From a virus (lineage: Duplodnaviria > Caudoviricetes), in the IMG/VR virus record IMGVR_UViG_3300037313_001414, positions 1 through 26,196 of that record: 26,196 nt of DNA; one strand, written 5' to 3'. The position numbers and the translations under genes were made by a program. Within the stretch, counting starts at the first letter, position 1. The number at the start of each line of letters is the position of its first letter. The notes beneath the pieces are model-generated. The model was not told where the DNA came from. It saw only the letters and a program-made list of their open reading frames with translations, and ran no database searches. Below are positions 752 to 8,518 of the stretch, piece by piece.

Positions 752-1288
752 TCAGGCGCTCTCGTTCTGGCGGGCAACTGCCATTAGCGCGGCAGAAATG
801 GCTTGTACGAGCTTTGTGTCGAAGTTAGCTGGTAGACCATTAACTGTCACAACTGTCTCGCCTATGGGCAAAACAACCGAGTTATAGCCCATTTTAGAAG
901 GCGCCCCTCGGGCCGGTTTCTGGGGCTCGGATACAGCATCGATGTCGCGAAAGCGCAGCGCCTCGGTTGTCTCCTGGCTAGGCAACTTTGTACCAAGGAC
1001 AGCGTGGGCCACATCCTTCATGGAATACTTCCACTCGAAGGTTGAATGGAGGGGTTGAGCGCGGATGACGAGCTTTCCGGCGCCCGCGCGCTGTAGCAAG
1101 TCGAATCGCTTCATCATGTCGGCATCGGTGAAAAAGATGCCGCCTTTGCCCAAGGCGAGTTTCAAGCGATAGATATCGGTGACGTCGCGCGAGTTGCGCA
1201 GGAGTAGTTCCTTGAAGATAGGTTTGCCAGCGACGTCATCGCCTAATAAGCCTTGCAACTTCTGCACAACTGCACTTGGTAATGCCAT
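752..1288 (-). CDS. Hypothetical protein (possible winged-helix-like DNA-binding protein)
   Basis: ORF 752..1339; preferred start is ATG 1288 (MALPSAVVQK), preceded by SD-like GAGAGGG and a sigma70-like promoter upstream. Confidence 0.7.
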   Translation of the reverse strand: MALPSAVVQKLQGLLGDDVAGKPIFKELLLRNSRDVTDIYRLKLALGKGGIFFTDADMMKRFDLLQRAGAGKLVIRAQPLHSTFEWKYSMKDVAHAVLGTKLPSQETTEALRFRDIDAVSEPQKPARGAPSKMGYNSVVLPIGETVVTVNGLPANFDTKLVQAISAALMAVARQNESA

Positions 1289-1366: not shown

Positions 1367-1431
1367 TTGTGTCTTTTAACTGTCAAACGATTTAGCTGTT
1401 TGGCTAATTGGCGGCAGCTAATTGACAACAA

Positions 1432-4742: not shown

Positions 4743-4829
4743 CTATCGAATGATTACAGTGAAGCCAAGGTCCTGTAACATTCGAAGGTCCTTAAGACTG
4801 ATTTTCGAAACAATAATTACGTTGTTCAT
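4743..4829 (-). CDS. 28-aa peptide, first gene of leftward cassette (not in ORF track)
   Basis: MNNVIIVSKISLKDLRMLQDLGFTVIIR*; no SD; a promoter-like AAGACA-N17-GACACT lies 6 nt before the ATG. Confidence 0.45.
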   Translation of the reverse strand: MNNVIIVSKISLKDLRMLQDLGFTVIIR

Positions 4830-4903
4830 GTCTTAAGTGTCTCGCAAACGGTCATAACTGTCTTGTAAAGATGTCTTGACCTCTGTTAACGTGATACAAT
4901 TCG

Positions 4904-5042: not shown

Positions 5043-5387
5043 AGGCAATTTACTTCCCATAGACCGACTGGAATGCATGCCGCATTGTTTGCAACCTCAA
5101 TCCCCAAATCATTCCTAAGTACCGGAAACCCCAAGTCTTTTCCTTAAAGCGCCCAATCTTAACAGCTTTGGTACCATTAAATCGATTGATGGTGATAAAA
5201 AAGCCAATGATTTCAAGCACGAGAGTCTAAGTCCGCGTTTTTTAAGGGGGCGCGTGGGAGCCCGCTCGCCGCTCACGTTCAAGTGGTTGTCGCCTAAATG
5301 CGGGGTCCATTTTTAGAGAGACCCCCGCTCCTCGTTACAGGAAGGGTAGGGGCGCGTCCGCTTACCGCCGGGCGCCCAGACCGTCGT

Positions 5388-5417
5388 TTGACAGTTAGCC
5401 GGCCGGGCGGTTACAGT
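5388..5417 (+). promoter_or_regulatory. sigma70-type promoter TTGACA-N18-TACAGT
   Basis: TTGACA at 5388-5393, TACAGT at 5412-5417, ATG 6 nt downstream. Confidence 0.6.
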
Positions 5418-5423
5418 CGGGTT

Positions 5424-5654
5424 ATGAAGCTTCTCGACAGTATGGCGTTCGACGCCGCCGACTCGTACTGCGACTGTAAAGAGGACGAACCGTGCGTCGC
5501 TAATGCATACATGGAAGGCTACAAGGCAGGCTTCCGCAAGGCGCGGGAAATGGCAGCCAACCTCGTCTATAACTACGACACCGATTCAAACGACCATGTT
5601 CGCGTGAACTGCTCGAACGCCATCGAGGAAATGGGCGAGGAAGAAGTCGGATGA
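5424..5654 (+). CDS. Small acidic hypothetical protein
   Basis: Preferred start ATG 5424 (MKLLDSMAFDAA...AYMEGYKAGF); stop overlaps the next start (ATGA). Confidence 0.7.
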   Translation: MKLLDSMAFDAADSYCDCKEDEPCVANAYMEGYKAGFRKAREMAANLVYNYDTDSNDHVRVNCSNAIEEMGEEEVG

Positions 5655-5854
5655 AAAAATCTACCGACAAACTAATCGAATTACTCAAATCCCAAGGATA
5701 CGTAGTTAAAAAGAAAACCGAATACGTTAAGAAGACAATGGATATTGACCCGGAGTTATTGAAAAGGTTAAGCGCCCAATTACATAAAGAGAATCTGACT
5801 CTGCGCGAAGCAATTAACGGAGCCATTAAACAATGGTTGGAGAATCGAAAATGA
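5651..5854 (+). CDS. Ribbon-helix-helix (CopG/Arc-like) DNA-binding protein, paralog 2
   Basis: VKKTMDIDPELLKRL...LTLREAINGAIKQWL is a classic RHH pattern; ATGA-coupled on both sides. Confidence 0.75.
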   Translation: MKKSTDKLIELLKSQGYVVKKKTEYVKKTMDIDPELLKRLSAQLHKENLTLREAINGAIKQWLENRK

Positions 5855-6198
5855 CCCCAATCGACACAACCAAGCCAGGCCGCGAACTCGACGCACTCGT
5901 TGCTGAGAAGGTGATGGGTTGGTCCGATTGTCGCTTTAAAGACGGGCGCGTTGTTGATGGGCTCGGAAGAGACCAATACAATAAGACCGCCCAATCAATT
6001 CCACATTACAGCACCGACATCGCCGCCGCTTGGTTGGTTGTTGACGGGTTAATGGCTCAAGGCCTTTCATTCCTCTTAGGTAAGGAATCGGTTGTGTGGC
6101 GAGCGCGATTTTATAAAGGTGATGGGGGCGTGACAATGCCGGGAGACACCGCGCCACACGCCATCTGCCTTGCTGCATTGAAAGCATGTGGTATGTAA
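5851..6198 (+). CDS. Phage ABA-sandwich (BC1872-like) domain protein
   Basis: Recognised motifs GRELDALVAEKVMGW, PHYSTDIAAAWLVV, TAPHAICLAALKA; start ATG 5851 overlaps the upstream stop. Confidence 0.8.
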   Translation: MTPIDTTKPGRELDALVAEKVMGWSDCRFKDGRVVDGLGRDQYNKTAQSIPHYSTDIAAAWLVVDGLMAQGLSFLLGKESVVWRARFYKGDGGVTMPGDTAPHAICLAALKACGM

Positions 6199-6203
6199 TT
6201 CAA

Positions 6204-6315
6204 TGGCGGCGACACGACGCGCGTGTTCTGGTCCACTAGCCCAACCGTCGAAAGACGTACCAGTAGGGAAGGCCCAGCCTAACTTCGGTTGGTAATGGCA
6301 TAATCCAACCCGCCA
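6204..6315 (+). ncRNA. Putative structured non-coding RNA (multibranch, GAAA and cUUCGg tetraloops)
   Basis: Closing helix TGGCGG/CCGCCA; hairpin GACACG/CGTGTT; helix CTGGT/ACCAG enclosing CGTC-GAAA-GACG; arm CCAGCCTAAC-TTCG-GTTGGTAATGG. Confidence 0.6.
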
Positions 6316-6390
6316 ATTTCTAAATCGTCAGAATGTTACAATTACCTGATGGCGTGCCATTGACGGCGCGCCCACCGAGGCTTGTAACAG

Positions 6391-6777
6391 ATGTCAAAAC
6401 GTCGCCCGAAATCAAACCGAGTCGAACACCGAATGGCAGCGTCGCTTGACGCGCTCGCCGAGTTCGAACGCTTTCAAGAAGAAATCCTTCCCATCCTTCA
6501 AACAGCCCTCAAAGAAGGCTGGACTGCTGAAAAGATTTACTCACATCCTAAGGCTCAGGCGCTGCTCGCTGCACGCCAACTCACAATCGGCATCATGAAC
6601 CCGGACCCAGGCAAAGCTCTAGCTGCCATTCAGGACGTGATGAATAGAACGATTGGCAAACCAACTGACAAGGTCGAAGTCAAAGGCAAGCTCGAGAAGA
6701 TGTCCGACGACGAATTGGACGCATTGCTCGCTGCCAAGTTGGCCGATGGGGCGCCCGCCGACGACCAATTGAATTGA
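6391..6777 (+). CDS. Terminase small subunit (putative)
   Basis: Helical 128-aa protein upstream of terL with a C-terminal GKPTDKVEVKGKLEKMSDDELDALL tail typical of TerS; SD GAGG. Confidence 0.65.
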   Translation: MSKRRPKSNRVEHRMAASLDALAEFERFQEEILPILQTALKEGWTAEKIYSHPKAQALLAARQLTIGIMNPDPGKALAAIQDVMNRTIGKPTDKVEVKGKLEKMSDDELDALLAAKLADGAPADDQLN

Positions 6778-6785
6778 GGTCGTTT

Positions 6786-6989
6786 GTGAGTCGTAGTTTT
6801 CGCAAACCCATCTACACAGAAGGCTACAAAGGGAAGGCGCGCAAGCATTCCAAGCGTCTCGCGTCGCGCGCAGTCCGCGCCTCCGACGACATTGCAGACG
6901 GTAAAGCATACAGAAAGCAATTTAACAGTTGGGACATCTGCGATTGGAAGATTCCGGCTCCAAACGATTGGAAGGCGCGCCGCAAATGA
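6786..6989 (+). CDS. Small highly basic conserved-type phage protein (SRSFRK...SWDICDW)
   Basis: GTG 6786 after SD GAGG; K/R-rich; stop overlaps the terL ATG. Confidence 0.6.
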   Translation: MSRSFRKPIYTEGYKGKARKHSKRLASRAVRASDDIADGKAYRKQFNSWDICDWKIPAPNDWKARRK

Positions 6990-8518
6990 GTGGTTTAAGT
7001 CGTGCCGAAAAAATCGAACTCCTTGCCGCGCTTGCAGAAAAGGAGCGCCGCGAAAAGGAAAAGCGCCCAGTATTCAAAGATAGGGCATCAGCAGAGCAGC
7101 TCGAAATTCTGGGCTGCGATGCCATGGAACGGTTTGTGTTTGCAGGCAACGGATTTGGTAAAACAGCATTGGGCGCTGAAGATGTTCGTTGCGCCATCAC
7201 GGGCGCGAATCCCTACAACGGAAAACGCTACCAACCGAACTGCCGCGCCTACATCATCTTGGACAAGCCCGAAAAAATTGACCGCATCATCATCCCAGAA
7301 CTTCGCAAATGGATGAATATACCGCCCGAATGGTGTCACAAGAAGGGTAAGCCATATGTTGCGGAGATATCGGACCCAAACTCTGGCTGGTCGATAACAT
7401 TTCTCTTTTGGGACCAGGACCCGATGACCGCCGAAGGTATCGAAGGCGATTACTTTTGGTTCGATGAGCCGCCGCCGCGCGCCCTCTATATTTCGCTTCG
7501 TCGTGGTGGCCGTACTAAGGGGCGCCGTGCTCGTTACCTGGTTACTGGGACCCCGCTCGCGGCCCCGTGGCTGCGAACCGAAGTCTATGAGCCATGGCTT
7601 AAGGGCGAACGCAAGGACTGTATGTGTTTCAGGGGGCATACAGAGGCAAACAAACACAACCTCGCTGACGGCTACATTGAATCATTCGCCTCTACGCTGT
7701 CAGAAAAGGAGCAGGGAATTCGTTTGCGCGGAGAATTCTTTGACTTGGACGGCCTCGCTTTCAGCCATTTGTTTCGTCGCGAAACCCATGTCATTCAGGA
7801 AAAAGATTGGCATTGGGAGCGCGATAACCCATGTGTTTTGGTTTTTGACCCACACCCAAGCAAGGCTCACCATGCGGTCCTGCTTGGCGTTGACCGCGAA
7901 AACCAGTTCTACATCGTCGAAGAGTTCAAAGAGAAAGCCATTGCGCGCAAGTTCGCGAACAGCCTTGTCGATAAGGGTTGGTTTGACCGCTACCGCATTG
8001 TCGATATTGTTTCCGACTCACTAGGTAGCGCCCAAACTACATCAGGCGAGGGCTTTAGGCCATTCATCGAAGTCGTTTCTGAAGTCCTAAGCCAGCGAGT
8101 CGGCATGCGTTGTCGAGCGACGACCTACGCAGAGAAGGACGAAGAGGATTTCGTTGAGCGTTTCCGCGAAGTCCTCGCTGTACCCGATGAACCGAACAAT
8201 TTCGGGCAACGGATACCAAAACTAAGGGTAAGGGCGCGATGTATTGGCTCCATTGGTGACATTGAAAACTGTCAATGGCAGCGCGATAAGCGGTTGGACG
8301 AAAATAAACCGAAACTCGACATCGCTCACCGCGATTTCTTAAGCTGCATCAAATACGGGCTCGCAACGAACCTTTTCTACAATAAACCGATAAAAACGCG
8401 CCCCCATTACGTCAGCAAACCAGTCTACGGCTTGCCGCCACGCAAAAATGCTAAAATGAGACTTCGAAGCGTTAACCGAAAACAGCCCGCTGTCGTCGAC
8501 GACGATGACGACTGGTAG
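6986..8518 (+). CDS. terL: Terminase large subunit
   Basis: Walker A AGNGFGKT, Walker B YFWFDEPP, motif III TGTP, RNase H-like VFDPHP; start ATG 6986 overlaps the upstream TGA. Confidence 0.92.
   Translation: MSGLSRAEKIELLAALAEKERREKEKRPVFKDRASAEQLEILGCDAMERFVFAGNGFGKTALGAEDVRCAITGANPYNGKRYQPNCRAYIILDKPEKIDRIIIPELRKWMNIPPEWCHKKGKPYVAEISDPNSGWSITFLFWDQDPMTAEGIEGDYFWFDEPPPRALYISLRRGGRTKGRRARYLVTGTPLAAPWLRTEVYEPWLKGERKDCMCFRGHTEANKHNLADGYIESFASTLSEKEQGIRLRGEFFDLDGLAFSHLFRRETHVIQEKDWHWERDNPCVLVFDPHPSKAHHAVLLGVDRENQFYIVEEFKEKAIARKFANSLVDKGWFDRYRIVDIVSDSLGSAQTTSGEGFRPFIEVVSEVLSQRVGMRCRATTYAEKDEEDFVERFREVLAVPDEPNNFGQRIPKLRVRARCIGSIGDIENCQWQRDKRLDENKPKLDIAHRDFLSCIKYGLATNLFYNKPIKTRPHYVSKPVYGLPPRKNAKMRLRSVNRKQPAVVDDDDDW

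Follow-up and report, generated by a model that had tools for sequence, protein, structure and literature searches.

Among described phage RNAs, the species 1 and species 2 stable RNAs of phage T4 provide a close tRNA-like comparison for the element considered here, the order and spacing of their helices being alike. Control of the C4 type has parallels in the CI RNA of phage P4 and in the immI arc/ant/sar locus of phage P22, and the arc parallel extends to the operon described below, which contains a gene for a putative Arc-like repressor. RNase P liberates the C4 RNA of phages P1 and P7, which then masks ribosome-binding sites (PMC5320573). The element described here resembles C4 in that it would be a small RNA with paired ends within a longer early transcript, in its tRNA-like shape, in belonging to a temperate phage (an integrase is encoded on a sister contig), and in a candidate pairing over the translation start of one of the phage's own genes. 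It differs from C4 in its length (112 nt versus ~77), in having no Rfam match (E<=10), and in offering one candidate site on first codons, where C4 uses two loops that cover the ribosome-binding site and an upstream box. Our leading reading, which we hold tentatively, is that of a tRNA-shaped small RNA acting in trans as a C4-like antisense on a tRNA chassis.

The element lies in an uncultured soil phage record that is 55% complete; by the window we mean the whole 26,196-nt stretch of DNA that was analysed. The late block of the window is podovirus-like, with genes for terS (a weak match), terL, portal, capsid and tail fibre. Three small genes (the 76-aa gene, the weakly Arc-like gene and the PF18066 gene) stand behind a TTGACA-type promoter motif at 5388-5417. 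The ABA-sandwich gene (PF18066) is the last of these, and the 112-base element starts 6 nt past its stop codon and lies 75 nt upstream of terS. The features of this region, together with the candidate target gene, are as follows.

5384..5417, plus strand: predicted promoter of the small-gene operon whose last element is the RNA (TTGACA, 18 nt, TACAGT)
5424..5654, plus strand: 76-aa gene (19 relatives at E<=0.001)
5651..5854, plus strand: putative Arc-like repressor gene (weak match to phrog_582, E 2.9e-4)
5851..6198, plus strand: phage ABA-sandwich domain gene (PF18066)
6204..6315, plus strand: candidate tRNA-shaped small RNA, whole element (stem descriptor; top full-length family-model hit in the window)
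6334..6342, plus strand: predicted extended -10 promoter of terS, 3' of the RNA (TGTTACAAT)
6391..6777, plus strand: terminase small subunit gene terS (weak PHROG match, E 0.0094; position; 22 homologs)
6986..8518, plus strand: terminase large subunit gene terL (PF03237)
752..1288, minus strand: 178-aa early-region gene, candidate antisense target (no Pfam family)
1377..1390, minus strand: promoter-like 14-mer with TTGACA before the candidate target gene, identical to 5384-5397 on the plus strand

We found no terminator-like site 3' of the RNA, and no terminator or ribosome site overlapping it. For the ABA-sandwich gene 19 relatives are listed; the gene is absent from the fetched loci, except for one identical copy, and from cultured phage records. 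Two classes of promoter can be recognized in the window: TTGACAGTTA-like sites, which stand before early leftward genes (849, 1386, 2660, 4148, 4304 and 4864, minus strand) and before the small operon (5388, plus strand), and extended -10 sites, which are scattered through the late block (8449, 10946, 12088, 13658 and 20173, plus strand). Elsewhere in the window, a gene-free, origin-like stretch just past the primase-like gene (393-680) holds nested long inverted repeats and repeated GGAAACC words, and a 24-nt tandem repeat of ~5 copies lies within a leftward ORF (2063-2182).

The original prediction had drawn the 112 nt as a closed multibranch fold of four stems, P1 to P4, with two tetraloops, a tetraloop receptor and a 7-bp alternative pairing proposed to act as a switch. 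The complementary strings of P1, P2, P3, the GAAA hairpin, P4 and the 7-bp alternative are all present at the positions claimed for them, and the elements of the RNA, all on the plus strand, are given here with their computed pair probabilities.

6204-6209/6310-6315: P1, terminal (acceptor-position) stem; 0.53-0.98
6211-6216/6222-6227: P2, the D-arm-position hairpin, 6 bp with loop ACGCG; 0.71-0.98
6228..6263 (6228-6232/6259-6263): P3, the anticodon-position arm, 5 bp, with a 13-nt bulge and a GAAA-capped hairpin; 0.05 for P3
6246-6257: GAAA hairpin; 0.90-0.99
6264..6287: variable-position region with the receptor-like strand 6278-6283 and UUCG at 6284-6287, assigned from sequence and pair probabilities
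6274-6298, with C6283-UUCG-G6288: P4 as originally drawn, an alternative fold; <=0.08 in any form
6241-6247/6286-6292: 7-bp alternative 'switch' helix; <=0.05
6288-6292/6305-6309: T-arm-position helix closing a 12-nt loop and stacking on the terminal stem; 0.30-0.31

The last of these is a fifth helix that had been overlooked. It stacks directly on P1, and it is mutually exclusive with the cUUCGg hairpin, since both need the same five bases; the tetraloop counts given below make that hairpin a strong signal in its own right, which speaks against the T-position stem. Under an energy model without tertiary contacts, P1, P2 and the GAAA hairpin are well populated, whereas P3, P4 and the proposed switch helix each reach a probability of at most 0.08; the switch pairing is also without covariation support. 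The overall stability of the RNA is ordinary: the minimum free energy (MFE) of -35.7 kcal/mol corresponds to a z-score of -0.55, with 60 of 200 shuffles equally good, and sliding z-scores across the region range from -0.3 to -0.7. The fold as drawn comes to -24.5 kcal/mol, which is 11 kcal/mol above the MFE, with P3 and P4 rarely paired.

Both the GNRA and the cUUCGg tetraloop hairpins that had been reported are present, and their co-occurrence is far above chance in shuffles. By criteria written after the sequence had been seen, a GNRA stem and a cUNCGg stem, each of at least 4 bp, occur together in 26 of 100,000 dinucleotide shuffles, and the strict pair of GAAA and cUUCGg in 0 of 100,000. 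In natural phage DNA (852,080 bases, made up of the window plus 76 relatives' loci on both strands), the loose GNRA/cUNCGg pair is found at four sites, of which the window RNA is one. The element is probably a real structured RNA outside Rfam. The adjoining terS leader (6334-6389) can also fold, by helices 6334-6341/6382-6389 and 6351-6358/6365-6372 of 8 bp each, and its sliding z-score of about -2.5 is the lowest between 5130 and 6530. The 6334-6341 helix overlaps the promoter motif and so may represent a DNA palindrome (operator).

The novelty proposed for the RNA is borne out against Rfam, in which we found no match at E<=10 over two short stretches and none at gathering scores over the window. 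ARAGORN makes no tRNA call at the element. It is nevertheless like a tRNA (RF00005) in the order and spacing of its helices, with an acceptor-position stem, a 2-nt linker, a D arm, a 5-bp anticodon-position stem, a variable region and a 5-bp T-position stem, and unlike a tRNA in having no 7-nt anticodon loop, no D-loop GG, no T-loop consensus, and a terminal stem of 6 bp rather than 7 bp. The stems fit a tRNA shape at least as well as the fold originally drawn, and the element is probably a loop-rewired tRNA-scaffold RNA. A literature search outside subscription journals found no paper on the window RNA or on the motifs of the family described below. Three short motifs are absent from three of the six supplements listed for a set of candidate viral RNAs (PMC10690425); the window RNA or the family may be among the candidates of that study, of which these supplements are a part.

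Collection of homologs upstream of terS yielded none that differs from the window RNA among the loci searched; the sole copy, in the sister contig G034, is identical, and for this reason the window RNA offers no covariation. The protein-guided scans used terS and terL in viral contigs, and terL alone in contigs from metagenomes (25 loci) and from genomes (1 locus). With the identical contig set aside, identity over terL ranges from 34 to 54%; closer TerL relatives (57-87%) entered the comparison as proteins. Four DNA-pattern scans of viral contigs returned 1, 2, at least 119 (44 of 64 parts covered) and 110 loci, and inspection of the four locus sets gave no new homolog. Likewise, a single-sequence model of the RNA (R1) found no homolog in 70 sources, in 95 of the 119 loci or in 100 of the 110 loci, its best match among the 95 loci scoring 12.8 bits (E 0.26) with no stable fold, and on 34 records it matched only G034. 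A blastn search against cultured phages and plasmids gave short chance-level pieces only, and the reads of three DNA sequencing runs, each possibly the source, contain no variant in the RNA; no RNA run is among the runs listed. In two of these runs (X2 and X3), a loose end behind window position 6185 carries another ABA-sandwich-like gene end, closely followed by 9 nt shared with 6240-6248 of the RNA, a match that, within the 30 letters visible, is probably due to chance.

Over 12,129 nt the sequence of G034 is that of the window without a difference (100% identity), and the contig extends 6.7 kb further left, into an integrase gene, a primase-like gene and a cluster of odd tRNAs behind a TTGACAGTTA motif that is also found in the window. 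The first RNA of this cluster (4788-4891, minus strand) shows both a D-arm and a T-arm and matches no Rfam family. The ends of the window RNA, 6203-6211 and 6309-6317, are identical to the ends of this cluster RNA over 9 nt each. A pattern made from these ends occurs in 2 of 34 records, at just the window RNA and the G034 cluster RNA, and its reversed control gave 0 hits. The cluster as a whole (locus L327, 4285-4892, minus strand) is an unusual tRNA-like array between the primase-like gene and the integrase. It includes a tRNA with a short GAAA-capped hairpin as its anticodon arm (27.9 bits), another with a degenerate T-loop (41.5 bits), and a third beside the integrase (38.1 bits) that is a possible attachment site. 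G034 has three Rfam tRNA hits, one of them below the cut-off, and ARAGORN calls none.

The G034 cluster RNA belongs to a family of six members, found in G034, in the contig G006 and in phages AP1, phiKX1, DMCA and Pan3 (OM049504.1, LC644975.1, PQ480021.1 and ON968454.1); a further hit, in phiKX2, stands outside the six-member alignment. The four members from cultured phages (Caulobacter, Komagataeibacter, Acidovorax and Pseudanabaena) are unannotated there. Across the three aligned stems (terminal, D-position and T-position), 96.1% of the cells are paired, a level that 0 of 500 shuffles reach, and both sides change in 8 of 17 pairs, the structure having been derived from the same six sequences that were counted. 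Rfam gave no match over the family RNAs at the AP1, phiKX1 and DMCA loci, the three cultured-phage loci scanned, and a family model run on 53 records and 49 loci gave no further member. The six members carry unrelated inserts; that of Pseudanabaena phage Pan3 (L335, 398-558) resembles, to the eye, a complete tRNA inserted at the anticodon position. In G006, a terL relative at 46% identity, the family member lies directly before the terS extended -10 motif, which is the slot that the RNA occupies in the window. This is the one region known to hold a family member among the 37 other terS-upstream regions.

The window RNA shares with this family a terminal stem ending in GG/CC, a 2-nt (C-R) linker, a D-position stem (5 bp as the family defines it), a variable insert and a GYYGG/CCRRC stem on the terminal stem, and it has its ends in common with the G034 member and its slot with the G006 member. 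It departs from the family in lacking the D-loop GA[AU]GGA and the 8-nt T-loop [UA]AUCAAGY, the T-position loop being 12 nt rather than 8, and in carrying the GAAA and UUCG hairpins. Compared with the G006 member, four of the six pairs of the D-position stem are the same and two are changed on both sides. We searched 1,454,076 bases (338 redundant sources) with a stems-only descriptor, whose loop ranges had been widened (T-loop 7-14 nt, D-loop 4-8 nt) so as to let in the window RNA. It picked out the window RNA and the six family members alone, and a single hit came from 60 Markov copies of the window. The family model, for which the window RNA was not used in training, places 6203-6316 on the plus strand first of 12 hits in the window with the three stems aligned, at a score that is not significant (11.1 bits, E 0.78; the next hit has 10.9 bits), and genome-level searches with the model did not report the RNA. 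Two training members rescored by the same model reach 74.1 and 102.6 bits. The low score of the window RNA stems from the difference of both conserved loops, and since it is not significant we do not file the RNA as a family member. We nevertheless consider it quite likely, judging from the sequence comparisons, that the window RNA arose by descent from the family scaffold or by convergence on it. RNase P normally reads the D/T elbow of its substrates, and the corresponding loops are missing in the window RNA.

We also compared the RNA with the gene leaders of the window. Positions 6281-6301 pair at 18 of 21 positions (17 Watson-Crick and one G-U) with +1 to +21 of the leftward gene at 1288, in a duplex of -21.4 kcal/mol. 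This pairing is the best among 44 leaders and starts at the AUG of the gene. At a comparison length of 21 nt, which was chosen after the match was seen, a match this good is reached by 3 of 400 shuffles (likewise at 24 nt) and by 10 of 462 natural tiles; at 12-18 nt it is reached by 30-62 of the 462 tiles. An exact-seed test gave no excess, with 2 of the 44 leaders against 1.87 expected. The family members of G034, G006 and DMCA have no such leader match when compared with dinucleotide shuffles, and an excess seen for DMCA against mononucleotide shuffles (25 of 113 leaders versus 10.5) disappeared against dinucleotide shuffles. The operon ending in the RNA and the 1288 gene share one identical 14-nt promoter-like site. 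The 178-aa product resembles three unnamed Atlas clusters (scores 0.93-0.94). The complementarity of 6281-6301 to the start of the 1288 gene is no more than suggestive.

Together, the shared ends, the slot in G006, the specificity of the descriptor, the rank in the family-model search, the pairing to the 1288 gene and the precedent of C4 lead us to the reading of an antisense RNA on a tRNA chassis. Under this reading, host tRNA-processing enzymes would cut the RNA from the 3' end of the early small-gene transcript. The released RNA would act in trans: by base-pairing across the AUG of the 178-aa early gene of the same phage, it would damp translation of that gene, as the C4 RNA of phage P1 does on its targets. 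The GAAA and UUCG hairpins would then be cargo, together with an alternative fold of the 3' half, rather than a ligand pocket. We regard the chances that the RNA is transcribed and released by RNase P as evenly balanced, and use of the complementarity to the 1288 gene as a possibility to be held with some doubt.

A tRNA-shaped scaffold without a partner RNA would account for all of the scaffold evidence. Such an RNA might serve as a signal for processing the early transcript or protecting its 3' end, just ahead of the late terS promoter, or it might be a second copy of the tRNA-cluster RNA in the course of decay. The position of the element, immediately past the final stop codon of the operon and with no terminator-like site after it, fits a 3'-end signal, and the absence of leader pairing by the family members agrees with a scaffold that has no target. 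Decay would explain the loss of both conserved loops, but the stems are intact, with the two double-sided changes relative to G006, and decay would not be expected to build two canonical tetraloops of a kind found together in so few shuffles. We consider this account possible, while somewhat doubting it.

Another reading that draws on C4 invokes two states, the RNA being a conformationally gated lysis/lysogeny regulator on a reusable tRNA chassis. In one state, a contact between the GAAA loop and its receptor, together with the cUUCGg hairpin, would stand in for the missing D/T elbow and conceal the antisense strand. In the other, formation of the T-position stem would expose a 12-nt loop with an anti-start-codon CAU, which would seed pairing to the first codons of the early regulator. 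We judge this more elaborate scheme improbable.

The GAAA arm and P4 do resemble, by eye, the consensus P2 and P3 of the c-di-GMP-I (GEMM) riboswitch, as had been pointed out, and could suggest that the fold originally drawn, with the GAAA loop docked in the P4 receptor, forms a GEMM-like aptamer that serves as a cyclic-dinucleotide sponge in trans. The GAAA arm matches the c-di-GMP-I apex; ~20 nt further on comes an arm that has both a receptor-like CUAA/UGG loop and a bulge of two purines, so that P4 follows the P3 layout (spacing of 23 versus ~20 nt). A GAAA hairpin plus a GEMM-P3-like arm, in a pattern adapted to the window RNA, occurs in 0 of 100,000 shuffles and only here in the 852,080 bases. 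Against this, neither RF01051 nor the GGC/UAU variants RF03167 and RF03168 match the RNA at E<=10, while a genuine viral c-di-GMP-I member scores 57.5 bits. The GCAAA junction is missing by the same by-eye comparison with the consensus, as the original prediction had itself stated, and the RNA has an extra hairpin, no expression platform, and a location upstream of the next gene's predicted promoter rather than in the terS 5' leader, unlike c-di-GMP-I leaders. The strings CCUAAC/GUUGG of the proposed GAAA-tetraloop receptor are present, and the arm that carries them follows the GNRA arm in the sequence, but our own mapping onto the 11-nt receptor places a U at position A8, the receptor arm has a probability of at most 0.08, and docking is without covariation support. 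A change at A8 of the 11-nt receptor is highly deleterious according to PMC11571812. We judge such a sponge unlikely. A true c-di-GMP-I riboswitch (57.5 bits) occurs at 390-477 of loci L109, L140 and L157, which come from large viral contigs.

The hairpins might also be a functionless chance assembly in an intergenic gap. The unremarkable MFE and sliding z-scores, the single natural sequence and the non-significant family score would all be expected of such an assembly; the tetraloop statistics, the ends shared with the paralog and the specificity of the descriptor would not, and we give this explanation little weight.

It is very unlikely that the element is a self-cleaving ribozyme of a new kind, acting to trim the early transcript, although it is compact, has several helices and follows a small-gene operon. 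The segment 6266-6306 is, by eye, like a peripheral part of a viral group I intron (L160), a likeness partly forced by the search pattern. Twister-P3, twister-sister and group I intron models do not match the RNA at E<=10, nor does any other Rfam model, and the twister-sister L1 strand G59-C60-U61-C62-A63 (PMC5660989) is missing. The accessible part of PMC11620745 adds nothing to the comparison beyond the twister-sister loop. Hairpin, pistol and hatchet ribozymes and tRNA were compared from general knowledge of their structures, and the Rfam scans for them were empty. The intron of L160 (304-562; 29.3 bits) lies in a 210-kb contig and has a receptor-like peripheral insert.

The original prediction had the RNA gating the packaging operon. 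Of 38 distinct terS-upstream regions (collapsed from 59 loci and counting that of the window), 19 carry an extended -10 motif of the type TGTTACAAT no more than 120 nt before the gene, against an expectation of 1.8 by shuffling; the motif was defined after the upstream regions had been viewed. In the window the motif lies downstream of the RNA, and transcription of terS from this predicted promoter would start past the RNA and leave it out of the message. We found no RNA similar to the window RNA near terS or terL, or anywhere in the 33 other records searched. The RNA is therefore unlikely to be a switch of the DNA-packaging genes. A cis-acting switch that gates the terminase operon could still be imagined from the proximity of the RNA to terS, from read-through out of the early promoter that could carry it into the terS message, and from its alternative pairings, but the intervening promoter motif, the lack of an overlapping terminator or ribosome site, the absence of the RNA near terS in relatives and the rarely formed switch helix make this highly improbable.

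A separate DNA motif of the GGGGCGCGT type occurs upstream of terS in 12 of the 38 distinct regions, the window's included (11 by another count; there was no chance control). Sites of this type are found at 5244-5270 of the window and in L010, L014, L024, L025, L028, L030, L036, L038, L041, L047 and L050. In most regions the motif is 190-500 nt from terS; in the window the distance is 1,146 nt, a span that takes in the RNA and all three small genes. It could mark the start of packaging or a boundary between early and late genes.

The RNA is apparently not a new riboswitch controlling the packaging genes. It is a single sequence from an uncultured phage, and its value is limited until homologs are found. 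If the reading of an antisense RNA on a tRNA chassis is true, one tRNA-like chassis would be reused by phages for different cargo, and the phage of the window would carry two versions of that chassis with the same ends. Since the family is present in cultured phages, its processing and function are testable now.
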